From positions 1 to 10,679 of the IMG/VR virus record IMGVR_UViG_2711768034_000007: a stretch of 10,679 nucleotides of DNA, one strand, 5' to 3'. The notes under the pieces are model-generated. The model worked only from the letters and a program-made list of their open reading frames with translations. It did not search any database and was not told the origin of the DNA. Of the stretch, positions 1 to 10,340 are shown one piece after another. The first letter of the stretch is position 1, and each line of letters begins with the position of its first letter. The DNA is from a virus (taxonomy: Duplodnaviria; Heunggongvirae; Uroviricota; Caudoviricetes). The translations under genes and the position numbers were made by a program.

Positions 1-201
1 TTACCCATTGGCGCGGCTTAAGAGCTTATTTTTGAATTCACAATGGTCACGATATAACCATCTTGCTCGCCCGTGGATAACTTTGGCTTTAGGCAGGTCT
101 CCGGACTTAATCCGGTCATAGATGAAGGTTTTACCGAAGCCAGTATCGGCCATGATGAATTTCAAATCAACCAGGGAATCAGGCTGTAGTTCGTGTTGCA
201 T
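1..201 (-). CDS. Putative excisionase (small HTH DNA-binding protein, Xis/AlpA-like, possibly DUF1233 type); last gene of the leftward operon in the window
   Basis: Complete 66-aa ORF (ATG at 201, stop at 1..3). Small basic protein with W/Y-rich C-terminus typical of small prophage excisionases as I recall them. Lies where xis sits in lambdoid phages, distal to the recombination genes; GGAG about 9 nt upstream of ATG. Not lambda Xis. Confidence 0.5.
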   Translation of the reverse strand: MQHELQPDSLVDLKFIMADTGFGKTFIYDRIKSGDLPKAKVIHGRARWLYRDHCEFKNKLLSRANG

Positions 202-243
202 GAGTGCTATCTCCGAATAGGGAATCGAACCTGCAAATCAGGT

Positions 244-267
244 AATAAAAAACCGCCATCAGGCGGC
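244..267 (-). terminator. Rho-independent terminator (minus strand) after the 55-aa ORF
   Basis: On the minus-strand RNA: GCCGCC-UGAU-GGCGGU stem-loop (5 to 6 bp, GC-rich) followed by UUUUUUAUUACC. The stop codon of the 55-aa ORF lies inside the hairpin. Confidence 0.5.
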
Positions 268-426
268 TTGGTGTTCTTTCAGTTCTTCAATTCGAATATT
301 GGTTACGTCTGCATGTGCTATCTGCGCCCACAGCATCCAGTGGTCATAGCAGTCGTTGATGTTCTCGGCTTCGATAACTCTGTTGAATGGTTCTCCATTC
401 CATTCACCTGTGACTCGGAAGTGCAT
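259..426 (-). CDS. Hypothetical small protein (55 aa)
   Basis: Hand translation of the minus strand: MHFRVTGEWNGEPFNRVIEAENINDCYDHWMLWAQIAHADVTNIRIEELKEHQAA. GGAG 7 nt upstream of ATG; ends in the terminator hairpin. Below the 60-aa track cut-off; preferred over the overlapping track ORFs 193..441(+) and 318..518(-). Confidence 0.4.
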   Translation of the reverse strand: MHFRVTGEWNGEPFNRVIEAENINDCYDHWMLWAQIAHADVTNIRIEELKEHQAA

Positions 427-533
427 TTATCATCTCCATAAAACAAAACTCGCCGTAGCGAGCTCAGATAAAAGAAATCCCCGCGAGTTCGAGGATTGTT
501 ATTCACCTTTGACGGCAAGTTGCAGGTTAGCCA

Positions 534-794
534 TTACCGCACCTCCAGTCTCCATACCGCCTGACCAATCCGGCTGGCATGGGTATCTTTGGATACTGCT
601 CCGTCTTTAGCCAGCTCCATAAGAATTTTGCGCAAATCTGCCGAACACCATTCTTCATCAGGAAATTCCTTCTCCATTGCCAACCGCAGATTCCAGGTTG
701 CTATCGTGAATGGATATTCCCCGCCGAGAGCTTTCTCTTGCAGGGCAGAACGGGAACGCATCACCTGCAAAACCTTCTCTTTTACATCCATCAT
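534..794 (-). CDS. Hypothetical protein (86 aa)
   Basis: Track ORF; start overlaps the stop of the upstream DUF551-like gene by 4 nt (ATGA coupling). Confidence 0.5.
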   Translation of the reverse strand: MMDVKEKVLQVMRSRSALQEKALGGEYPFTIATWNLRLAMEKEFPDEEWCSADLRKILMELAKDGAVSKDTHASRIGQAVWRLEVR

Positions 795-1429
795 TTTGCC
801 TCCTGCGGCGGTTCCGGTAGTGGCATCCAGTGGGTTACGTCATCCAAGATATTGCCTGATAAATATGTGAAAGCTCTGTATTTTTTGTAATCAATTGGAC
901 TCACTACCCAGTTCCAATATGCTGCCACTATTTGACCTTGACTAAATGCCAGTAACATTTTGGTGTCTTCCGGCATTCGCTCACTACAGCTTATCCAACC
1001 ATCCGGAGTTACCGGAGAGTTGCCGGGTTCTTTAATGTGCAAACAAGGATCACCATCTTTTGGTTCAGTCCACTGGCGCTCCATGTTGATCTTCAATTTA
1101 TTTTCCATAGCAGCGGTAATTTCAGCATCACTGATACCAGCACGGCGCTGTGCATCCCACAACAGGAACTGCATATCAGCCCACTCGCTGAGATCGTCTG
1201 GTTCGGCTGCGGCTTCCAGAGCCTCTTTTGAGAGGTGTTTCAGTGGACCAATGGGGCCAACGCAGCCAAATGTGGAGTCAGACCATTTGGCATGCTCGTG
1301 GCGAATCAGTTCGCGTTCCAGTGATGCCAGTGCAATTCGTGCCAGTTCCATTTGTTCGCCACGAGTAAGTCCGTTATCAAGCGGATTTTTAATGAATAAT
1401 TTGATACGTTCTTTGGTTATAGCGTTCAT
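791..1429 (-). CDS. Phage protein with DUF551-like C-terminal domain (212 aa)
   Basis: C-terminal segment (...WISCSERMPE...VTHWMPLPEPP) resembles the DUF551 signature common in lambdoid early regions. AAGGAGAG SD a few nt upstream of ATG; starts 1 nt after the stop of the Ead/Ea22-like gene. Confidence 0.55.
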   Translation of the reverse strand: MNAITKERIKLFIKNPLDNGLTRGEQMELARIALASLERELIRHEHAKWSDSTFGCVGPIGPLKHLSKEALEAAAEPDDLSEWADMQFLLWDAQRRAGISDAEITAAMENKLKINMERQWTEPKDGDPCLHIKEPGNSPVTPDGWISCSERMPEDTKMLLAFSQGQIVAAYWNWVVSPIDYKKYRAFTYLSGNILDDVTHWMPLPEPPQEAK

Positions 1430-1430
1430 C

Positions 1431-1838
1431 TCACTCTCCTTTGATGCGAATGCCAGCGGTGCGGATTGCAGCGATGACTTCAGAAACTTTGTATGCCATT
1501 ACCGTTTGGTAATCATCGTGAAAATCTGTTCGATGAAGCATGCTGCTACGTTCCGGGAGCAGTATTTCCCGCGCTTCCAGTTCTGCAATGCGCTTTTTTG
1601 CTGCTTCCAGTTCATCCAGTAATTCCAGCACGGTAGCCGGATTAGCCTTGGCAACAAAATCCCGGACTGGCTTACAATCAATCTCCGCAATGGGTTGATA
1701 CAATGTGTAGCCATGCTGTCTTGTATAACTACCGTGACGAATAACGAAAAAATCACCATTTATTTTTTTAGCCTGCCACTTATCTTCACCGGCTTTCTCT
1801 GCCGCTTCACGCAGTGCCTGATAGTCAATCTTGTTCAC
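1431..1838 (-). CDS. Ead/Ea22-like protein (135 aa)
   Basis: N-terminus MNKIDYQALREAAEKA... and ...ANPATVLELLDELEAAKKRIAELEA match the Ead/Ea22-like family of lambdoid prophages as I recall it. 4-nt start/stop overlap with upstream gene. Confidence 0.6.
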   Translation of the reverse strand: MNKIDYQALREAAEKAGEDKWQAKKINGDFFVIRHGSYTRQHGYTLYQPIAEIDCKPVRDFVAKANPATVLELLDELEAAKKRIAELEAREILLPERSSMLHRTDFHDDYQTVMAYKVSEVIAAIRTAGIRIKGE

Positions 1839-2059
1839 TCTTCATCCTCCAAGTCGGCAACGGCGTCCATCACATCAGAACCGCGAATAACCTCAAAAGC
1901 ACGGCAGGCCATTTGAAATACCAGTTGCTCTTGCGGGTGAGGAGACTCCCAATATTTGAAGCCTGGGCGATGCGTGTACCCCATCATTGAATAAAAATCA
2001 CCAGCAAGCTTAATCGCGGCATCGACAAGCTCTCTGTTAGTCATTCTTTTTCCGCTCAC
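1835..2059 (-). CDS. Hypothetical protein (74 aa)
   Basis: Track ORF, ATGA-coupled to both neighbours, part of a tightly packed same-strand gene chain. Confidence 0.45.
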   Translation of the reverse strand: MSGKRMTNRELVDAAIKLAGDFYSMMGYTHRPGFKYWESPHPQEQLVFQMACRAFEVIRGSDVMDAVADLEDEE

Positions 2060-2637
2060 TGGTTGCCTCCTTTGCGAAGCTGGGCAGCAAAGTCAACTAA
2101 CCACTCAGTCATTTCAACCTTCCCTACCAGGTCTGAACCAGGGTGCATACAGCAATCACTCTGCGCCGCTTTGAAATCCTTACACTCATATTCTTTGGCC
2201 ACCAGATTTTTTGCAGCTTCTATAGCAGCATCCACCCCCTGCGCCCGCACTTCAGCCAGAAAAGCATCGGTGGCTGGGGTTTCGACATCAAGCACAAACT
2301 GAAACTCATGCAGCGTTTGCCCGTCGATGAAGTCACTGGAATCAGAGCTGATAGTGGCGTTGAATTTCTCGTAGGCCTTGCACGCTTCACTCAGCAATTC
2401 TCGCCCCGTAGACTTCATCCCCGCATTCTCCGCCGCCAGCGCCGCGCACTTGGCCTCAAGGTTATCAATCGTGACTCCAGCAGAACGACACTCACGCAAC
2501 GCCGTTTCCAGTTTTGACTCAAGCTCACCGAACTTACGGACAAGATATTCAGCGTTTGTTTCGTTAACCTTTAAATCTCGTGGGATGCATTTACCTTTCA
2601 GAAATCCATCCATCTCAATTAGTGACATTTGTTTCAT
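2056..2637 (-). CDS. Hypothetical protein (about 193 aa; track ORF extends to 2655, I prefer the ATG at 2637 that overlaps the upstream stop as ATGA)
   Basis: Long ORF with predicted helical/coiled-coil character; start choice based on translational-coupling geometry. Function unknown. Confidence 0.5.
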
Positions 2638-2798
2638 TTCTTCCCACTCCGCCACATCGCATTCAGATATTTGTTTTGATTCACTGAAGGAAAAGAATTT
2701 CTCTTAAGCAATTCCTCTCTCGATGGCATTGGCTTTACGCGTTGGCGAATAATCATTTCTGCCGGAAGAATGCCGGGATTGTATGCAAGTCCTCTCAT
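2634..2798 (-). CDS. Hypothetical small basic protein (54 aa)
   Basis: ATG at 2798 preceded by GAGGAA about 8 nt upstream, immediately after the TGA of the 97-aa gene. This resolves the apparent overlap of track ORFs 2634..2948 and 2809..3102. Confidence 0.4.
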
Positions 2799-2808
2799 GG
2801 TAAATTCC

Positions 2809-3102
2809 TCAGTCATTACTGATAGCGCCATAGCGTGAGCGGTAATTACGCAGGCGCGGGTCAATTTCAGGGAAGTGGGTATATGTGGCTTTGCGGAATG
2901 GTCGGATTGATGTCTGGTAAATTCGCTCGCGTTCTTCTTTCTCTGCAAGCCATATACAATGGCGAAATTCCTTTTCCTCTTTCGTTTCCTGCGGTAGCGA
3001 CATTATCCGGTCGTAGTTTTTCCTGAATTTATCCAGCACCTCCGATACGGAATTGCCGGAACAGCGGCGCGCGTCATCCGCACCATACAGAGGCGCTGGC
3101 AT
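2809..3102 (-). CDS. Hypothetical protein (97 aa)
   Basis: Track ORF; GGAG 6 nt upstream of ATG at 3102; follows the exonuclease gene. Confidence 0.5.
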
Positions 3103-3118
3103 GGTTTTCTCCTGTTGA

Positions 3119-3667
3119 TTATTTAGCTAACTTTTTCCAGATCGCTGAAACGTATTTGGCTTGGTGAATGGCATCATCAAGCGCGTTGTGGCGAGTTCCT
3201 TTGAATGGCATATCTCGCTTAGGGTCGAATCCTATTACCTTCCCAAGTTCGACGATTGTTCTTACGTCGCGGTCATTCCACCACTGCCACGGAACTGGCT
3301 GCCCTGTCAGCGAATAACTGTTTCGGAGAATAACGCAGTCAAATGATGCTCCATTCCCCCAAACCTGAACGAATTTGTGGTTAGCGTTCTTTATGATGAA
3401 TTCAGATAACCATGAAAGAGCCGTTGAAAGCTCCTGAGTGTTGCTGGTTAGCGATTTTCTGGCTTCTTCACTCTGTTCCAGCCACCATAAAATCGTTGAA
3501 GCGTCAGGACGCGCCCGATATCGCATTGATGACTCAAGCGAGATATTTACCGAGAACTCTTCTCCTGTTTCTCCGGTATTCGGGTCAAAGAATACCGCCC
3601 CAATAGAAATAACTGGCGCATATGGCCCGTTGCCCATTGTTTCAAGGTCAACCATTAAGTGATTCAT
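3119..3667 (-). CDS. DEDDh-family 3'-5' exonuclease (DnaQ-like / Rv2179c-like fold), 182 aa
   Basis: Exo motifs visible in the translation: VDLET (Exo I, D-x-E), GASFD (Exo II), HNALDD (Exo III, H-x4-D). AAGGA SD upstream of ATG at 3667. Confidence 0.7.
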   Translation of the reverse strand: MNHLMVDLETMGNGPYAPVISIGAVFFDPNTGETGEEFSVNISLESSMRYRARPDASTILWWLEQSEEARKSLTSNTQELSTALSWLSEFIIKNANHKFVQVWGNGASFDCVILRNSYSLTGQPVPWQWWNDRDVRTIVELGKVIGFDPKRDMPFKGTRHNALDDAIHQAKYVSAIWKKLAK

Positions 3668-3675
3668 GTAAGTCC

Positions 3676-4182
3676 TTAAATTGCGTGAATAGCGTGACGA
3701 GGGAAGGGGAGAGTTACTGGTGCAAAGGGTATATCGTCGTCAAAATCCATCGGAGGTTCGTTGTGTTGTGCTGGTGATGATTGCTGCTGTGGCTTCTGTG
3801 ATTGCCTGCTGGCTGCTTGTTGTTTGCTGTCGCCAATTCCGCCAAGCATTTGCATCACGCCATTAATTCCGACATGAACCTCGGTTGTGTAACGGTCTTG
3901 CCCTGACTGGTCTTTCCACTTTCTGGTTCTCAGCATTCCCTCGAAATAAATCTGATCACCTTTTTTCACATACTGCCCCACGACCTCAGCCAGTTTCCCG
4001 GATACAGCAACACGATGCCATTCAGTCAATTCCTTTTGCTCGCCAGTATTTTTATCTCGCCATTGTTCTGACGTGGCTATTGTCAGGTTAGCGAACGCTG
4101 TACCTGATGGTGAGTATCGAACTTCCGGGTCTTGTCCTACCCGACCAAGGATAATCACCTTATTTACGCCTCTGCTTGCCAT
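3676..4182 (-). CDS. ssb: Single-stranded DNA-binding protein (SSB), with 15 extra residues after the canonical C-terminal DDDIPF
   Basis: N-terminus [10 protein letters not shown]..., OB-fold core (...TEWHRV...[11 protein letters not shown]...MQMLGG) and the [10 protein letters not shown] tail closely match E. coli SSB as I recall it. The ORF continues past DDDIPF as [15 protein letters not shown] before the stop at 3676..3678. Confidence 0.9.
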
Positions 4183-4890
4183 TTATGCCGCCTGTTTTAG
4201 TTCGTTAACTCTGATGTTCATTACCTGAACGCATTTAGCCTGCGCCTCCTCATTGCCAGCCATTAATTGCCAGTCACGCTGATAACGCTCGATGAGTTTT
4301 TTCTTGTCAGTTTCTGTTGACACATAATCGCTGAAGTCTTTCAGGATTTGTTCACAGTCAACCGATGGAGATTTCTGGTTGGTATTTTCTGGTGATGGTT
4401 TGTTATCTGATGCTGGTATTGCCCATCCCGGCAGCGATGGAGGGAGCCAGTAAAATCCTGTTCCATCCTTGAGTTTTGCCCTGTGCCATCCCTGCTTTTT
4501 ATCGAGAGATGTTTGTGCGAAACCTTCCTCAAGGTTATACAGATACCGACCGATTCCCCACTGAACGGCAGCGCGCTTCATTGCACCGGAACGACCACCT
4601 TTGACGGCTTCTACCTGCGTGTTTTCAGCAGCATCCCATTTGGTTACCCATTCGGAATCAATCTTTATTGATATGCCGCATTCAACGCCGCCGTTGTTGG
4701 GAATATCGCGGTATTCATTGCGCCATCCTGCTTTGCCGCAAACATCGTCCAGGCGTTTCATGATTGCCCGGTTCGTGACATAAGCCAGCACCATAGCCCA
4801 CACTTTGCCATCGCGTGTTTTACCGCTTTGCTGTATTCGCCATTCGATATCTTCAGGGCTGAATGGCTCATCGAATTTGTTCAAATCCAT
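4183..4890 (-). CDS. Rad52/Rad22-family single-strand annealing protein (Sak-like recombinase), 235 aa
   Basis: Segments ...RLDDVCGKAGWRNEY... and ...KGGRSGAMKRAAVQWGIGRYLY fit the conserved Rad52 N-terminal annealing-domain pattern. Directly upstream of ssb; GAGGTG SD before ATG. Confidence 0.6.
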   Translation of the reverse strand: MDLNKFDEPFSPEDIEWRIQQSGKTRDGKVWAMVLAYVTNRAIMKRLDDVCGKAGWRNEYRDIPNNGGVECGISIKIDSEWVTKWDAAENTQVEAVKGGRSGAMKRAAVQWGIGRYLYNLEEGFAQTSLDKKQGWHRAKLKDGTGFYWLPPSLPGWAIPASDNKPSPENTNQKSPSVDCEQILKDFSDYVSTETDKKKLIERYQRDWQLMAGNEEAQAKCVQVMNIRVNELKQAA

Positions 4891-4989
4891 AATTCACCTC
4901 AGAATGGACATGGCCCAAGAAAATAACGCTGATTTAATACTTCGACTCGGGACAAATTAAGGCATACCCGCATTCCTTCGCGGTCGCCA

Positions 4990-5148
4990 TTATGGCGATA
5001 CCAGAGAGCTTTCTGCGTGTACATGCGTCTCTGTAACTTGCTCTCCTTCACTGTGGTTGCAAGTGACATGAATATCTCCTTCGTTACCGATTAATTCTTT
5101 CATCTGACGAATGAATTCTTCGTCTGACCAGTTATCTGTAAAACTCAT
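4990..5148 (-). CDS. Hypothetical small acidic protein (52 aa)
   Basis: Hand translation MSFTDNWSDEEFIRQMKELIGNEGDIHVTCNHSEGEQVTETHVHAESSLVSP; ATG overlaps the kil-like stop (ATGA). Confidence 0.35.
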   Translation of the reverse strand: MSFTDNWSDEEFIRQMKELIGNEGDIHVTCNHSEGEQVTETHVHAESSLVSP

Positions 5149-5297
5149 TTCCTGCGATACCATGGAAGGTTGATAGCTGATTTCATCTCTTTATTTGCTT
5201 CAAGCCACATTTTTGAATCACCAATAAATCGGGCTATTACTGCTTTGTTTTGTGCCGCACGAAGCATCTGGTGATTAATGGCTATTTCATTGCGCAT
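5145..5297 (-). CDS. kil: Kil-like small protein (50 aa), candidate FtsZ/cell-division inhibitor
   Basis: Hand translation MRNEIAINHQMLRAAQNKAVIARFIGDSKMWLEANKEMKSAINLPWYRRK. Sits immediately after cIII as kil does in lambda, and has an I-A-x-F-I-G-D-x-K-M core resembling lambda Kil as I recall it. Start overlaps the cIII 3' end. Confidence 0.45.
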   Translation of the reverse strand: MRNEIAINHQMLRAAQNKAVIARFIGDSKMWLEANKEMKSAINLPWYRRK

Positions 5298-5413
5298 AAT
5301 AAGACCTCAACTCTTTTCCATCCGTCACGTAATTTACGGGTGATTCGTTCAAGTAAAGATTCATTTAATTGGAAGGCACCCATGCGAGCGCCTCCCGCGA
5401 TTGCGTAAATCAT
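5282..5413 (-). CDS. cIII: CIII-like protein (43 aa), FtsH inhibitor that stabilises CII
   Basis: Hand translation MIYAIAGGARMGAFQLNESLLERITRKLRDGWKRVEVLLCAMK. The core ESLLERITRKLRDGWKR matches the lambda CIII amphipathic-helix region as I recall it. AAGGA SD 7 nt upstream of ATG. Confidence 0.75.
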   Translation of the reverse strand: MIYAIAGGARMGAFQLNESLLERITRKLRDGWKRVEVLLCAMK

Positions 5414-5437
5414 GGGCGGTTCCTTATGTTGGTTTTA

Positions 5438-6406
5438 TTAGTAGGTTATTTTTGTTGCGAATACTTCGCCTTTTGCGATGGCTATTATGATATTTTTAGC
5501 AACATCTTCTGATGCGCCAACCTTGATAAGGTCAGCAAGTATTTTGTTATTTACTTCTTTCCGGTGAGCTTTATCCTTTGCTCTACGCTCTTCTTCGTCC
5601 TTGATTCTTTTCCCTTCTGCTATTCTGGCTTGCTCTTTTGCTTCAGCCTCGCGCCGGATTCGTTCAGCCTCCTCCTGTGCTTTTCGGCGTTCTGCTTCAA
5701 TTGCCGCCTGCTTTTCTCTTTCAGCTCGTTCTGCCGCCTCTTTTGCTTCGCGCTGTGCTCGTTGCTCGGCTTCAATGCGTTCACGCTCTGCACGTTCCGC
5801 TGCGGCCTTAGCTTCTGCTTCTCGCCTTGCTGCTGCTTCAATTTCGGCTTTTGCCTTTGCTTCGGCTTCTGCTCTGGCTTTCTCTTCAGCTTCTCTTTTT
5901 AAGCGTTCTTCATGCTCTCGCTTTTCCTGCTCCGCTTTGAGTCTTGCCTCTTCTCTTTGGCGGTCAAATTCGCGATCCATCAAAATCGCTATTTCATGGT
6001 CAGACTCAATTTGCTTTGCGAGAGCTTCAGCTGCTGCCTTAGCTTCTTCTTCGGCTTTAATCCGTGCCTGTTCCTCCTCATAATCAGTAAGAGGCTGGCG
6101 CGCCTTGGCTTTCAGCTCATCAAGGCGATCACGCACTGTCTTGCGGTTAGCATCAATTAGCTTTGGAATTTCCTTCAGTTCAGCAACAAGGTCTTTGCCA
6201 AGACCATCGAGATATGTTTTCGTCTGCGCAACTTTATACGCCAGAGAAGCGATCTCCTTTCTGCCCTTTGCCGTTGTAACATCAGGCACAAAGGACATAA
6301 CTTCACGTTCAACCTTTTGGAGAATTTCTTCAATCTGGTCGGCAGACTGAAATACAGTCATTGCATTTGCTTTTTCAATAACAACTAAATCTGTTACTTC
6401 ACTCAT
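5438..6406 (-). CDS. Charged coiled-coil protein with long E/A/K/R-rich low-complexity core (322 aa from ATG at 6406; track ORF extends to 6502)
   Basis: Start chosen at MSEVTDLVV... because GGAGG lies 5 nt upstream and the upstream in-frame extension runs through a terminator hairpin. Central about 150 aa is EAEAKAKAEIEAAARREAEAKAAAERAERER...-type repeat; N- and C-terminal parts look globular. Confidence 0.6.
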   Translation of the reverse strand: MSEVTDLVVIEKANAMTVFQSADQIEEILQKVEREVMSFVPDVTTAKGRKEIASLAYKVAQTKTYLDGLGKDLVAELKEIPKLIDANRKTVRDRLDELKAKARQPLTDYEEEQARIKAEEEAKAAAEALAKQIESDHEIAILMDREFDRQREEARLKAEQEKREHEERLKREAEEKARAEAEAKAKAEIEAAARREAEAKAAAERAERERIEAEQRAQREAKEAAERAEREKQAAIEAERRKAQEEAERIRREAEAKEQARIAEGKRIKDEEERRAKDKAHRKEVNNKILADLIKVGASEDVAKNIIIAIAKGEVFATKITY

Positions 6407-6418
6407 ATATCCTCCGTC

Positions 6419-6446
6419 AAAAAAAATCGCCCTCACATTGGAGGGC
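6419..6446 (-). terminator. Rho-independent terminator inside the pL operon (tL-type, presumably read through by N-modified RNA polymerase)
   Basis: Minus-strand RNA: GCCCUCCAAUGUGAGGGC hairpin (6-bp GC-rich stem) followed by GAUUUUUUUUGA, immediately upstream of the SD of the coiled-coil gene. Confidence 0.6.
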
Positions 6447-6550
6447 AAAGAAGATTTCCAATAATCAGAACAAGTCGGCTCCTGTTTAGTTACGAGCGAC
6501 ATTGCTCCGTGTATTCACTCGTTGGAATGAATACACAGTGCTTATTTGTA

Positions 6551-7021
6551 CTAATAAAATACCCAATTTTCTGTTTCTTGGTTGTGTCCAAAGTTATATT
6601 CAATATCTGGTGTTGATGTATCAATATTCTTCATCACATCAACAAGAGTTGATACAACAGCCAAATCTTGTTTGATTCTCATTAAATGGTATTTCTTCCG
6701 GCGTAATAAACTCTCAATGGCAAGTTTCTTCGTTGGGAATGCAAAAGATCTTTCTGCATTTTTTGCTACTTTCTTAATTGCATATCTATTTTTCCTTTGT
6801 TTCCATTCCTGTAACCACTGATTTGGTGCTGGTTTAAAATTAACAATCCAATGCGCAGGAACCAACCATGCATAATGCTCTGTCTGATGAAAAGATATAT
6901 ATTGAAGTGCGAATATTTTTATCCCATCTTCTTCAACTGTCGCCTGGAATCTCCAGAAAACAGGCATTCCATCATGTTCAGTTTCTGATTCAGGAAAAGG
7001 TACGCTCCATGATTTTGTCAT
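6551..7021 (-). CDS. Hypothetical protein (156 aa), AT-rich accessory gene directly downstream of N
   Basis: Track ORF; GAGGTG SD about 5 nt upstream of ATG at 7021. Visibly AT-rich relative to flanking genes. Occupies the slot that holds ral/sieB in lambda. No family recognised. Confidence 0.5.
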   Translation of the reverse strand: MTKSWSVPFPESETEHDGMPVFWRFQATVEEDGIKIFALQYISFHQTEHYAWLVPAHWIVNFKPAPNQWLQEWKQRKNRYAIKKVAKNAERSFAFPTKKLAIESLLRRKKYHLMRIKQDLAVVSTLVDVMKNIDTSTPDIEYNFGHNQETENWVFY

Positions 7022-7643: not shown

Positions 7644-7704
7644 CGTAGATTCATATTCGAATCGTTGTATATTCACCGCCCTGGTGAGTAGTGCGTCCTG
7701 CTGA

Positions 7705-7740
7705 TGTGTTTAGTATCACCGCCAGTGGTATTTATGTCAA
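7705..7740 (-). promoter_or_regulatory. pL promoter (leftward early promoter)
   Basis: On the minus strand: -35 TTGACA (plus-strand 7735..7740), 17-bp spacer containing OL1, -10 GATACT (7712..7717), inferred start near 7705. Nearly identical to lambda pL as I recall it. Confidence 0.85.
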
Positions 7741-7774
7741 CACCGCCAGAGATAATTTATCACCGCAGATGGTT
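7714..7774. promoter_or_regulatory. OL operators: OL1 7714..7730, OL2 7738..7754, OL3 7758..7774
   Basis: Three 17-bp CI-binding half-palindromes read directly from the sequence: TATCACCGCCAGTGGTA, CAACACCGCCAGAGATA, TATCACCGCAGATGGTT, matching lambda OL1 to OL3 as I recall them. Confidence 0.9.
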
Positions 7775-7930
7775 ATCTGTATGTTTTTTATATAGATTTA
7801 TTTTTTTGCAGGGGTGTGTGGCTTGGGAGGTGATCGAGAGATCTGAATTGCGATGTTTAGTGAGTTGTATCTATTAATTTTCAAATAAATACAATTGGTT
7901 ATGTGTTTTGGGGCGAACGTGAGGCAAAGA

Positions 7931-7956
7931 AAACCCGGCGCGGTGGCCGGGTTTAT
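7931..7956. terminator. Hairpin terminator closing the cI-distal cassette (terminates leftward cI-operon transcription before OL/pL; potentially bidirectional)
   Basis: AAACCCGGC-GCGGTG-GCCGGGTTT: 6-bp GC stem extendable by A/T pairs, flanked by A-run on one side and T-run (TTTATTTATT) on the other. Immediately 3' of the stop (7957..7959) of the 216-aa gene. Confidence 0.6.
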
Positions 7957-8607
7957 TTATTGCTTAGGAGCTTGTTGTGATGACGATTGGTTAGTTGGAG
8001 CGCTCGTTAATGGTTGCTGTGTCGGTACCTGTATTATAATTGGAGCCGGGCTGGTTACTGATGGTGACTTGTCATTGCCGGAGATAATCCAACTTGAGGC
8101 TAACATCACGCCAGACAGAATCACAGTAACTAAAGTCAAGCCAACGGCCATCGCCCACTGAGTCGTTGTAAGTCCCGTTTTCAAACCGCCGATTTCACCT
8201 TTAATTTCAGCAATACCTCTCTCAATAGAAGAAAATTGCTGAGTATAATAGGTTTTAAAGTCAGCTGATTCGCGACGCATTTCCGCAGCAATAGACTCTA
8301 CCTCTGATTTGTTTTGTGAAAGCTTTGCGTCAAGTTCTTCTCTGGACATTCCGCTCACGCTTACCTCCAGGGTATCACTCTTCATCGCTACATCTTCCTT
8401 ACTTGGGCGCAAACCCGTTTCGTCCATGGCGTATGAAACTCTATTTGATACCTTAGCATCAATACCAATACTTTGGTACTGAGATGGATCCCCATAAGGA
8501 GAAACGGTTGTCGCTGCTAGGGTTGCACTAACTATAATACTTGGAAGAACTGATGATGTTGTTCCTGAGGTAGGTTGAACTGAAGAAACTGGCTTCAGTC
8601 TTTCCAT
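7957..8607 (-). CDS. Membrane-anchored protein (216 aa): S/T-rich N-terminus, predicted helical/coiled-coil middle, one C-terminal transmembrane helix, short S/P/Q-rich tail. Function unknown; occupies the rexAB slot
   Basis: Track ORF. Hydrophobic stretch WAMAVGLTLVTVILSGVMLASSWII near the C-terminus. ATG overlaps the stop of the upstream 88-aa gene by 13 nt (translational coupling). Terminator follows immediately. AT-rich. Confidence 0.55.
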   Translation of the reverse strand: MERLKPVSSVQPTSGTTSSVLPSIIVSATLAATTVSPYGDPSQYQSIGIDAKVSNRVSYAMDETGLRPSKEDVAMKSDTLEVSVSGMSREELDAKLSQNKSEVESIAAEMRRESADFKTYYTQQFSSIERGIAEIKGEIGGLKTGLTTTQWAMAVGLTLVTVILSGVMLASSWIISGNDKSPSVTSPAPIIIQVPTQQPLTSAPTNQSSSQQAPKQ

Positions 8608-8861
8608 AGCCCATTATCCCTGAGAGCTACCTGTAATGATTTTACTAATGCAACAGCTTGATCCGGGCTCATTGAGACTGACATGTTAGGGGTCAACTCA
8701 ACTTTTACTTGGAAGCTATTATTTCCTTGCTCATCAGACTGCATGTGATGCTCAAATTCATGGCGGTAAAAAGTAATGATTGTTTCAGCACGATCAGGCG
8801 TAATAAGAACTGATGTGGCGGTCATGTGCTGAGGTATGATTTTAATAGTGTTATCTGACAT
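8595..8861 (-). CDS. Hypothetical soluble protein (88 aa from ATG at 8861; track ORF extends to 9002), first gene of a coupled pair in the rexAB slot
   Basis: Start MSDNTIKIIPQHM... preferred: AAGGA SD about 5 nt upstream. Overlaps the downstream 216-aa gene. AT-rich. No family recognised. Confidence 0.5.
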   Translation of the reverse strand: MSDNTIKIIPQHMTATSVLITPDRAETIITFYRHEFEHHMQSDEQGNNSFQVKVELTPNMSVSMSPDQAVALVKSLQVALRDNGLWKD

Positions 8862-9053
8862 AAGTATCCTTTTTGTTTCCTTAGTATTTTTTTGCATTGA
8901 CATCAGAAATAGCGAATCCACAAGAGTATGAGTAAAGCTAATCAGTTTAGTGATACGGTGACTATTAAAGTGGTAAACCACATCAAAGCTCGCAGAGTGC
9001 ATACCAGGCTGTCACACATGACAAAGTAACGAGGATGCCTGATCTCATAGCGC

Positions 9054-9209
9054 TCAAAGAGACATGCCGATAATGGCATTAACCACGCATGACGCCATAA
9101 ACACGCCGCCAACGATGAAGCTGGCTTGGTTCTTCCTGGTAGCGCCAAGAGTCAACAGAACCACTGAAAGGGCAAAAAAAGGTATCGCGATTATGCTGAA
9201 CGTGTTCAT
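9054..9209 (-). CDS. Candidate small membrane peptide (51 aa, two predicted transmembrane helices)
   Basis: Hand translation MNTFSIIAIPFFALSVVLLTLGATRKNQASFIVGGVFMASCVVNAIIGMSL: two hydrophobic helices separated by RKNQ. GAGG about 5 nt upstream of ATG; 77 nt downstream of the cI stop. Below track cut-off; speculative. Confidence 0.3.
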   Translation of the reverse strand: MNTFSIIAIPFFALSVVLLTLGATRKNQASFIVGGVFMASCVVNAIIGMSL

Positions 9210-9286
9210 GTTGACCTCAACTTATTTCGATTCTCCATCACCCTTAATCCGCCGCCCCATGTGTTTGTTGTGATCCGTTGCTGGCC

Positions 9287-10003
<717 letters not shown>

Positions 10004-10010
10004 TTAAATC

Positions 10011-10083
10011 TATCACCGCAAGGGATAAATATCTAACACCGTGCGTGTTGACTATTTTACCTCTAGCGGTGATAATGGTTGCA
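10011..10083. promoter_or_regulatory. OR operators with divergent promoters pRM (leftward) and pR (rightward): OR3 10011..10027, OR2 10034..10050, OR1 10058..10074; pR -35 TTGACT 10048..10053, -10 GATAAT 10071..10076
   Basis: Sequence shows TATCACCGCAAGGGATA, TAACACCGTGCGTGTTG, TACCTCTAGCGGTGATA. The first two match lambda OR3/OR2 as I recall them; OR1 differs at one central position from my recollection (TACCTCTGGCGGTGATA). pR hexamers are 17 bp apart. Confidence 0.9.
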
Positions 10084-10091
10084 TGTACTAA

Positions 10092-10301
<210 letters not shown>

Positions 10302-10340
10302 GTAACACCGCTATTTTCACAATGGACATTCGTCCTACGT

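Follow-up and report, generated by a model that had tools for sequence, protein, structure and literature searches.

What takes the place of rexAB in a lambda-immunity prophage that lacks it, and what would that DNA do for the lysogen? The slot between cI and OL is the classic home of rexAB. The exclusion gene stk of phage 933W occupies the same slot, and in P22 sieA adjoins mnt in immI. Published work describes the slot as a mosaic accessory and defence locus with RexAB, BstA and HigBAC (PMC8585504; PMC7067206; bioRxiv 10.1101/2024.02.24.581848), which backs an earlier sequence-only reading of this DNA that called it a hotspot for defence cargo.

The DNA analysed here, called the window, is a stretch of 10,679 nucleotides from a virus record (IMGVR_UViG_2711768034_000007). 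Positions 9291-10312 correspond to lambda 37231-38252, which is cI through cro, at 97.75% identity. Positions 7673-7957 correspond to lambda 35550-35829 (PL/OL with the terminator and the final 5 nt of rexB) at 89.9% identity. This maps the junctions with lambda to the nucleotide, with the cI stop codon on one side and the terminator on the other. Given that both junctions are exact, the 1333-bp block 7958-9290 stands in the precise place of lambda rexB-rexA. The comparison with lambda finds no counterpart of rexB-rexA DNA anywhere in the window. This confirms the claim that rexAB is absent here and has been replaced between cI and OL. The three open reading frames proposed as its replacement are all present, and all are on the minus strand in the same orientation as cI, as the sequence-only reading had it. 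The features are:

7712..7774, minus strand: lambda-type left operators OL1 (7714-7730), OL2 (7738-7754) and OL3 (7758-7774), read directly from the sequence; they bound the slot
-35 at 7740-7735 and -10 at 7717-7712, minus strand: promoter PL, from a promoter scan, in the region that is 89.9% identical to lambda 35550-35829
7923..7954, minus strand: intrinsic terminator of tIMM type at the end of the cI operon; 9-bp GC-rich stem, 6-nt loop, then UUUUCUUU
7957..8607, minus strand: gp48, an inner-membrane protein of 216 aa with a C-terminal anchor (HK97 Gp48)
gp48 residues 1-86: low-complexity variable N-terminal region
gp48 residues about 87-146: conserved helix and coiled coil
gp48 residues about 150-177: transmembrane helix, the sole hydrophobic segment by hydropathy; helix 147-177 in the AF2 model
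gp48 residues 178-216: 39-residue Pro/Gln/Ser-rich tail with a PIIIQVP motif
8595..8861, minus strand: gp49, an 88-aa soluble partner with four beta strands and a C-terminal helix, translationally coupled to gp48
8862..9053, minus strand: spacer between orf51 and gp49, 192 nt at 39.6% GC, without a supported gene or promoter; it holds an unsupported 5' extension of the gp49 frame
9054..9209, minus strand: orf51, encoding a membrane protein of 51 aa in which a basic loop (TRKN) connects two hydrophobic helices; its ATG has a GAGG Shine-Dalgarno 5 nt upstream
9287..10000, minus strand: cI repressor of lambda immunity type, a 237-aa ORF annotated cI in HK97 and the first gene of the lysogenic transcript

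The cassette is 99.8% identical to genes 49 and 48 of phage HK97. That the window is HK97 itself was considered and rejected, given that only about half of it matches that phage. The carrier is an HK97-type prophage with lambda immunity, and 7958-9290 is accessory cargo. Both gp48 and gp49 have been annotated in HK97, without function, since the genome was published in 2000. The frames are therefore not new as such, although the statement that they belong to no characterised family stood up to searches in Pfam, NCBIfam, PHROGs, PADLOC, PDB and fold libraries. The insert had also been called AT-rich, which is true only marginally: the GC content of the cassette is 43.7%, while the window averages 45.8% (sd 2.1% for pieces of cassette size). 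The gp49 gene and the spacer come near 40% and no other part does, while orf51 reaches 48%.

The same lambda-immunity flanks carry other cargo elsewhere, such as rexAB, hicAB with one further ORF, c105/c104 of HK542, a DUF1828 pair or a DUF6932 pair. A strictly defensive role is not true of everything found in this slot.

Transcription of the block can be read from its signals. The terminator stem is perfect, pairs 7931-7939 with 7946-7954, and is followed by UUUUCUUU on the minus strand. The hairpin has an energy of -19.1 kcal/mol (z = -4.0), which confirms the strong terminator that was said to close the cassette before OL. It is homologous to lambda tIMM, with 92% identity to the 3' end of rexB in lambda, and it shares 100% identity with the site that the mEp234 and HK106 records label 'Timm'. 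Within the cassette, the minus strand contains no convincing terminator. A promoter scan finds no consensus promoter there either; the best candidate by eye has 8 of 12 matches. Given this and the shared orientation with cI, read-through up to tIMM is to be expected. In a lysogen the block would be transcribed together with cI from PRM, and during establishment also from PRE, as lambda rexAB is. An Rfam search of the whole window returned no match. A Shine-Dalgarno sequence precedes the start codons of orf51, gp49 and gp48 alike, each of these genes has conserved homologues, and their substitution patterns are consistent with coding constraint.

The smallest of them had been proposed as a possible two-helix membrane peptide. 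It is a real gene: in addition to the Shine-Dalgarno sequence, hydropathy gives two hydrophobic segments, and there are 35 clusters of homologues at 67-98% identity, nearly all of exactly 51 aa. In comparison with chromosomal homologues, the DNA similarity ends exactly at the ORF boundaries. The strand was called from this boundary conservation and from synonymous versus non-synonymous counts, where the sense frame has an excess of synonymous changes and a ratio above that of the antisense frame. Third-position bias is of no help in separating the two, because both frames share wobble positions. The gene is missing from the annotation of HK97 and of E. coli S1, and the HK225 record has the antisense ORF instead, which goes to show that annotation misses small membrane proteins in immunity regions. 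Judged by its sequence, orf51 is a real, conserved and so far unannotated two-helix membrane protein.

Within E. coli, orf51 is found only together with the cassette (52 of 52 genomes). In other Enterobacteriaceae its homologues are mostly chromosomal, for example near pmrD, yceI or an ECF sigma factor gene. Since these relatives are small chromosomal genes, orf51 is probably an independent moron, captured from an enterobacterial chromosome. It is not present in any other locus of the gp48 family that was inspected. The block therefore holds two separate units, orf51 and the gp49-gp48 pair, with orf51 outside the conserved module. Of the three-gene cassette that was first described, only gp49 and gp48 recur as a pair.

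For gp49, the frame is open up to 9002, yet all homologues are 88 aa long. The possible starts at 9002 and 8903 have no Shine-Dalgarno sequence, and the ATG at 8861 is the only one that does. Hydropathy shows no hydrophobic segment, so the description as an 88-aa soluble protein is correct. Its overlap of 13 nt with gp48 (8595-8607), also part of that description, is real and is kept in a homologous pair from Klebsiella and in locus L044. No DNA-binding fold was found in gp49, and a sequence-profile search of the PDB with it gave no match. A resemblance to DUF3467 or SecB-like folds was considered and dropped, as no search supported it.

The larger protein, gp48, had been said to carry a single C-terminal transmembrane helix. 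There is indeed one helix, but given the Pro/Gln/Ser-rich tail of 39 residues that follows, it lies near the C-terminus and not at it. The AF2 model of gp48 is poor, with a mean pLDDT of 49.8, which makes oligomerisation and pore formation speculation. The protein matches phrog_5820, annotated as function unknown. Weak matches below threshold point to the stress protein sll1863 (E 0.003) and to the coiled-coil CCDC90-like family.

Across Pfam, NCBIfam, PHROGs and PADLOC, the three proteins return only PHROGs of unknown function and sub-threshold matches of coiled-coil or transmembrane type. No Pfam, NCBIfam, PADLOC, PDB or fold match points to a function for any of them. PADLOC-DB v2.0 in particular has zero matches for gp48, gp49 and orf51; the extended 135-aa frame of gp49 has a weak match to PDC-S52 only (E 0.0095), and 43 members of the gp48 family have only scattered weak matches of coiled-coil type. 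The searchable literature on gp48/gp49, their accession numbers and exclusion by HK97 lysogens holds no report on function or phenotype.

What the pair does have is relatives. A profile search finds 210 clusters related to gp48 at E<=1e-3. The family layout starts with a variable N-terminus, goes on with a conserved helix, a coiled coil and then a single transmembrane helix, and ends in a tail rich in Pro and Gln. In the family alignments the conserved helix reads ISREELDAKLxQNKAEVxxVAAEMRxEM, and gp48 has it too. Exactly one transmembrane helix is present in 124 of 146 relatives, with a median length of 144 aa before it and a median tail of 35 aa. The tails are 51% P+Q+S+T, with recurring motifs of the PIIIQVP type.

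It had been suggested to check whether the pair recurs as a unit in other prophages. It does, in several genera and next to differing repressors. Among 20 representative loci, drawn from 80 viral contigs, a small soluble partner gene lies directly upstream of the membrane gene in all 20. The pair is downstream of a cI-like or short HTH repressor in 15 of these, and diverged pairs are directly downstream of such repressors in Yersinia, Klebsiella and Kosakonia prophages. In the other five it adjoins an Arc/Mnt-type repressor with an antirepressor, as is the case in Xenorhabdus-type and other prophages. HK225 carries an identical cassette next to a different repressor. In every locus inspected, the module is within a prophage immunity region.

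The two genes also vary together. Of 18 tabulated pairs, 11 have overlaps of 4-17 nt between partner and membrane gene. Over the 18 pairs, partner clusters nest perfectly with clusters of the N-terminal region, while the core of helix and transmembrane segment is common to all. Comparison by hhalign of the gp49 family with the partners from Yersinia, Kosakonia and Xenorhabdus was not significant (the best match has 17 columns, E 0.002), so the partners are treated as separate classes. On sequence grounds, gp49/gp48 is one version of a widespread and unnamed family that joins a small partner to a tail-anchored membrane protein and is linked to repressors. New here are orf51 as a gene, the gp48 family, the recurrence of the pair beside repressors, and the co-variation of partner and N-terminus.

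As the sequence-only reading also suggested, gp49/gp48 may serve in phage exclusion or abortive infection, here as an envelope module of two components that the lysogen expresses. The proposal draws on position and architecture only and is put forward tentatively, as close to an even call. The first 150 or so residues of gp48, holding the variable region and the coiled coil, are most probably cytoplasmic, and the Pro/Gln-rich tail with its conserved hydrophobic strand motif would be periplasmic. The variable N-terminal region of gp48 is probably the binding site for gp49, a small cytosolic beta/alpha protein; this contact is suggested by the perfect co-variation of partner type and N-terminal type across the family. 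The same co-variation could also be simple linkage of adjacent DNA, without physical contact. The pair would most likely shield the lysogen from other phages. Partner and N-terminal region would set the specificity. The core of coiled coil and transmembrane helix would act at the inner membrane to block genome entry, which amounts to superinfection exclusion, or alternatively, once triggered, would disturb the membrane, which amounts to abortive infection.

A more ambitious form of this proposal is possible but doubtful. Here the pair would serve as type member for a class of defence modules in prophage immunity regions that is widespread but had gone unrecognised. In these modules an exchangeable specificity unit, made of the partner and the N-terminus, would be fused to a tail-anchored coiled-coil effector that is conserved. 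With its rigid, Pro-rich tail in the periplasm and the conserved strand motif, the effector would sense an incoming phage at the envelope or block it, and would couple what happens in the periplasm to the cytoplasmic partner. The mechanism would then be distinct from that of RexAB and of known Sie proteins.

Lambda RexA/RexB is the obvious comparison. Both systems have the same slot and orientation, from cI to tIMM/OL, both combine a soluble with an inner-membrane protein, and both are presumed to be co-transcribed with cI. There the likeness ends. No Pfam, NCBIfam or PADLOC match to Rex is found for gp48, gp49 or orf51, and there is no sequence similarity. The partner gp49 has 88 aa where RexA has 279. 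RexB is a channel of 144 aa with four transmembrane segments, in contrast to gp48 with its one helix, long cytoplasmic coiled coil and periplasmic tail, as predicted. The promoter scan also shows no sign of an internal PLIT-like promoter in the cassette. By sequence, gp49/gp48 is unrelated to RexAB.

Also comparable are the pairs gp30/31 of Sbash, gp30/31 of Butters and gp43/44 of CarolAnn. These actinobacteriophage systems pair a cytoplasmic with a membrane protein, lie next to the repressor, are expressed from the prophage and defend against heterotypic phages. They come from other hosts and have multi-pass membrane partners, and relatedness to gp49/gp48 is unlikely. A family relation exists with c104 of the pair c105-c104 in HK542 and HK244 (EF120457/EF120458, records of Degnan et al. 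2007), wild phages that share both the slot and the lambda immunity. The 206-aa c104 protein belongs to the gp48 membrane-protein family and has an overlapping partner gene upstream. Its coiled coil is longer, however, and neither its N-terminus nor its 144-aa partner, of phrog_5893 type, is related to the corresponding part of gp49/gp48. Like gp49/gp48, this pair is uncharacterised. The CCDC90-like/DUF1640 family (PF07798) also has a coiled coil followed by a C-terminal transmembrane helix, and 16 of 43 gp48-family members match it, with a best E-value of 2e-8. For gp48 itself the match is 12.6 bits (E = 0.12), below the Pfam gathering cut-off of 33.5. The likeness is largely compositional, coming from the coiled coil, and no bacterial function is known for the Pfam family.

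Defence is not the only role such a locus could have. It is conceivable, if unlikely, that gp48/gp49, orf51 or all of them convert the lysogen in ways that have nothing to do with phages, by altering envelope physiology, stress tolerance or host interaction (compare lambda bor and lom). The proteins are membrane-located, the gp48 tail is predicted to be periplasmic, the relatives of orf51 are ordinary chromosomal genes near envelope and stress genes, and gp48 has its sub-threshold matches to stress-protein and coiled-coil families. Such a role sits uneasily with a module that every inspected locus places within a prophage immunity region. Fast swapping of partner and N-terminus also fits a specificity element in an arms race better than a housekeeping role in the envelope.

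Quite unlikely is an addiction pair, in which gp48 would be a membrane-active toxin restrained by gp49, encoded upstream, so that the prophage is stabilised and phage defence is secondary. Neither protein resembles any toxin or antitoxin family in Pfam, NCBIfam, PHROGs or PADLOC, gp49 has no DNA-binding fold for the usual autoregulation, and the pair apparently has no promoter of its own. It does share with type II toxin-antitoxin operons that the small gene comes first and that stop and start overlap, and true toxin-antitoxin cargo occupies the same slot in sister phages (hicAB; HigBAC, bioRxiv 10.1101/2024.02.24.581848). The pair might also serve the life cycle of the phage itself and bring the host no benefit, for example by influencing how lysogeny is set up or maintained, how the prophage is induced, or what happens at the membrane during lysis or injection. 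Its tight linkage to the repressor gene over many immunity types would suit this, and a coiled coil with a C-terminal transmembrane helix is loosely like phage lysis-associated proteins of the XhlA type, a likeness that no match supports. Yet sister phages with identical lambda immunity have rexAB or hicAB and do without the pair, which is therefore dispensable for the switch. With a position on the lysogenic transcript that is wrong for lysis genes, and no Pfam match to XhlA or holin families, this role is very unlikely.

For orf51, the closest analogy is HK97 gp15, a superinfection exclusion moron that derives from YebO and is expressed by the prophage (PMC3594210). Like orf51, it is a small inner-membrane protein of an HK97-type phage with chromosomal enterobacterial relatives. 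They differ in that gp15 has one transmembrane helix and lies in the tail operon, whereas orf51 has two and comes after cI, and there is no apparent sequence relation.

HK97 is a model phage, and its cargo in the slot where rexAB is classically found has been without an assigned function since 2000. The gp49/gp48 pair is a good candidate for an anti-phage module, from a modular family that adjoins the repressor genes of many enterobacterial prophages. Being no orphan but part of a repressor-linked family in many prophages, it offers a concrete and cheap target for a defence screen. If active, the swappable partner and N-terminus would form a natural system for specificity exchange in membrane-based phage exclusion. 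Of complete E. coli genomes, about 1% have the pair in its exact form, and more have variant forms.

The sequence-only reading held that rexAB is replaced between cI and OL by three genes co-oriented with cI, and this replacement can be placed to the nucleotide. By BLAST against lambda, window 9291-10312 matches cI-cro at 97.75% identity, and 7673-7957 matches PL/OL, the terminator and the last 5 nt of rexB at 89.9%. These flank matches end at 7957 and 9291, and therefore a 1333-bp block, 7958-9290, lies exactly at the rexB-rexA site. The three ORFs are all present on the minus strand:

9054-9209 (-), orf51, a 51-aa two-helix membrane protein
8595-8861 (-), gp49, an 88-aa soluble protein
7957-8607 (-), gp48, a 216-aa membrane protein

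The 13-nt overlap claimed for gp49 and gp48 is real, and so is the hairpin terminator, with a perfect 9-bp stem and a U-tract (-19.1 kcal/mol, z = -4.0). It is the element annotated 'Timm' in GenBank records of other lambda-immunity phages. The lambda-type OL is borne out too, as OL1-OL3 and PL can be read directly in the sequence. The insert is AT-rich only marginally, at 43.7% GC where the window averages 45.8% ± 2.1%.

On its right-hand side the window is a lambdoid immunity region of HK97 type. Window 7880-9290 shares 99.8% identity with phage HK97, in which the ORFs are annotated Gp48, Gp49 and cI. The cassette is real, but in its bare form it is already on record as HK97 gp48/gp49. The additions here are the reality of the 51-aa gene, the extent and build of the gp48 family together with its obligatory partner, and a presumptive specificity module whose parts co-vary. 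The window is not HK97 itself, which covers about 50% of it (from around 6540 onwards, with some pieces elsewhere). Window 1-6540, with an Erf/SSB/exonuclease-type recombination module, has its matches in phages N7, CurroJimenez_Bas106 and Huey (96-97% identity). This makes the source a mosaic relative of HK97, probably a prophage of E. coli; the cassette is present at 100% identity in one E. coli genome.

Published accounts treat the cI-N interval as mosaic and as a hotspot of accessory and defence genes, namely RexAB, BstA and HigBAC (PMC8585504, PMC7067206, bioRxiv 10.1101/2024.02.24.581848). The terminator-side flank is present in 566 of 5,426 complete E. coli genomes, 52 of which have the HK97-type cassette, always at 99% identity or more. 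At least five other sets of cargo were found between the same lambda-type flanks, with examples from inspected loci L018 and L101 and genome matches H126 and H135:

rexAB, the lambda-type cargo
hicAB (hicA-hicB) plus one hypothetical ORF, in mEp234 (L101), HK106 and E. coli PE15
the HK542 variant of the gp48 family
a pair of one DUF1828-domain and one hypothetical protein, in E. coli CFT073 (L018)
a pair of one DUF6932 and one hypothetical protein, in E. coli R18

The last two sets, with DUF1828 and DUF6932, are uncharacterised as well.

Judged by sequence comparison, orf51 is a genuine gene, although it lacks an annotation in HK97 and in nearly all of the 52 E. coli genomes where it occurs. 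A GAGG Shine-Dalgarno lies 5 nt upstream. The homologues, in 35 clusters with 67-98% identity, almost always have a length of exactly 51 aa, and DNA similarity starts and stops at the ORF boundaries. In three homologues, synonymous to non-synonymous changes are 20:9, 22:15 and 26:12 in the sense frame, and 14:16, 14:22 and 18:19 in the antisense frame. The antisense start codon is missing in two of the three. HK225 has two annotated plus-strand ORFs antisense to orf51 (locus L002 3507-3852, about window 9064-9273), for one of which the record notes a 'poor ribosome-binding site'. Comparison with the homologues speaks for the minus-strand gene rather than these.

Relatives of orf51 in Atlantibacter and Lelliottia have ordinary chromosomal neighbourhoods, and one in Kosakonia is near a phage tail gene. 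In E. coli it occurs only together with the cassette (52 of 52 genomes), and it is absent from all other gp48-family loci. We treat it as a putative independent moron, resembling in this HK97 gp15, which derives from chromosomal yebO (PMC3594210).

For gp49, the start at 8861 is correct: it has an AGGA Shine-Dalgarno, which the alternative ATGs upstream lack, and full-length homologues are 88 aa. No characterised family had been recognised in any of the three proteins, and Pfam, NCBIfam and PADLOC likewise gave no significant match. PHROGs assigns gp48 to phrog_5820 and gp49 to phrog_26809, both of unknown function, and a literature search not covering Degnan et al. 2007 found no paper that gives either a function. 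The single transmembrane segment of gp48 is there (about residues 150-177), but it is C-terminal only in the sense of being near the end, as a 39-residue tail follows. The AF2 model is poor overall (pLDDT 49.8), but it has two helices, a long one at 89-139, modelled with confidence, and another at 147-177. Because there is no signal peptide, and some 150 hydrophilic residues precede the only transmembrane segment, the topology is predicted to be N-in/C-out.

The gp48 family is larger than a word-indexed search, with 11 relatives, would suggest. With a full profile search over 1.84 billion representatives the number rises to 210 at E<=1e-3, of which 109 reach E<=1e-10, and a degenerate-pattern scan of viral contigs found 80 loci. 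The order is a variable N-terminal region, a conserved helix (ISREELDAKLxQNKAEVxxVAAEMRxEM), a coiled coil of varying length with G-x-I-x-G-L-K-like repeats, a single transmembrane helix and a Pro/Gln/Ser/Thr-rich tail. Exactly one hydrophobic segment is found in 124 of 146 relatives, with a median of 144 aa before it and a median tail of 35 aa. Among 43 members, Pfam matched coiled-coil families only and PADLOC gave scattered weak matches only. CCDC90-like/DUF1640, matched by 16 of the 43, also ends in a transmembrane helix, but gp48 itself is far below the Pfam threshold.

Family tails often have a short hydrophobic motif (PIIIQVP, PLIIQMP, PTVIYVQQP) or PAPAPAP repeats. In gp48 the tail (residues 178-216, window 7957-8076) is predicted periplasmic, with a strand motif flanked by Pro/Gln; the motif recurs in the family (PIIIQVP, PLIIQMPAQQ, PTVIYVQQP), in some with PAPAPAP spacers. 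A possible role is beta-augmentation or docking, with a partner in the periplasm or outer membrane or with a component of an incoming phage.

A survey of whether the pair recurs had been called for. Each of the 20 representative loci inspected has a soluble ORF of small or medium size directly upstream of the membrane gene on the same strand, and 11 of 18 tabulated pairs have stop/start overlaps of 4, 11, 13, 14 or 17 nt. In 15 of the 20, the pair comes immediately after a cI-like (S24) or short HTH repressor and in the same orientation, divergent from cro/cII and the replication genes. The other five, Xenorhabdus-type or other prophages, have it beside an Arc/Mnt-type ribbon-helix-helix gene and an antirepressor, which we take to be an immI-like neighbourhood, the site of P22 sieA. 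HK225 has the same cassette adjoining another repressor, and in the lambda-immunity phages HK542 and HK244 the rexAB slot holds another gp48-family version, c105 plus c104. A Yersinia intermedia prophage (L003 4746-5691) has two more paralogous ORFs of about 133 aa between repressor and pair, each with an N-terminal transmembrane helix, which adds to the uncharacterised membrane cargo of this slot.

Several classes of partner can be told apart (phrog_26809, 4231, 4293, 5893/5881 and others); they are unrelated or barely related to one another, and none has a known function. In an all-against-all BLAST of 18 pairs, the partner clusters nest perfectly with those formed by the N-terminal region of the membrane protein; the helix/TM core is common to all. 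The exchange unit is therefore the partner plus the N-terminal region, with its breakpoint where the conserved helix starts. Read most simply, this would mean that the partner contacts the N-terminal region and that together they confer specificity, which implies a gp49-gp48 contact. Linkage alone could also produce this co-variation.

Anatomy, conservation, coupling, modular architecture and repressor-linked placement are established. The cassette is likely co-transcribed with cI, since a sequence scan detected no internal promoter or terminator. The favoured function, quite possible if somewhat short of probable, is that gp49-gp48 protects the lysogen from other phages; what points this way is where the pair lies, how it is built, and the swapping, as in an arms race, of a presumptive specificity unit. 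The pair would then be a two-component envelope module, acting by entry exclusion or a triggered membrane insult. A lysogenic-conversion function unrelated to phages is unlikely, a membrane toxin-antitoxin addiction pair is less likely still, and a role in the phage's own cycle is the least likely.

RexAB membership was ruled out: the pair has neither homology to RexAB nor its four-TM channel feature. It may work like RexAB in outline. As a new variant of repressor-linked prophage exclusion systems, gp49-gp48 is a solid, testable, undemonstrated candidate.

Elsewhere in the window, a 156-aa ORF at 6551-7021 (-), just past N on the PL operon side, is HK97 Gp45, which has no annotated function. 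No stretch of the window is more AT-rich than the one in which it lies (GC 0.35-0.37, mean 0.46). The HK97 record has a putative terminator downstream of the gene, which may be a further accessory, moron-like one. The centre of a 354-aa ORF at 5438-6502 (-) is an extremely charged Glu/Lys/Ala/Arg-rich repeat, which leads to strong AT skew (to -0.73) and, in other frames, to several long ORFs that are spurious. The feature name 'TolA' appears in one mEp234 record, among the annotations under its match to the window.
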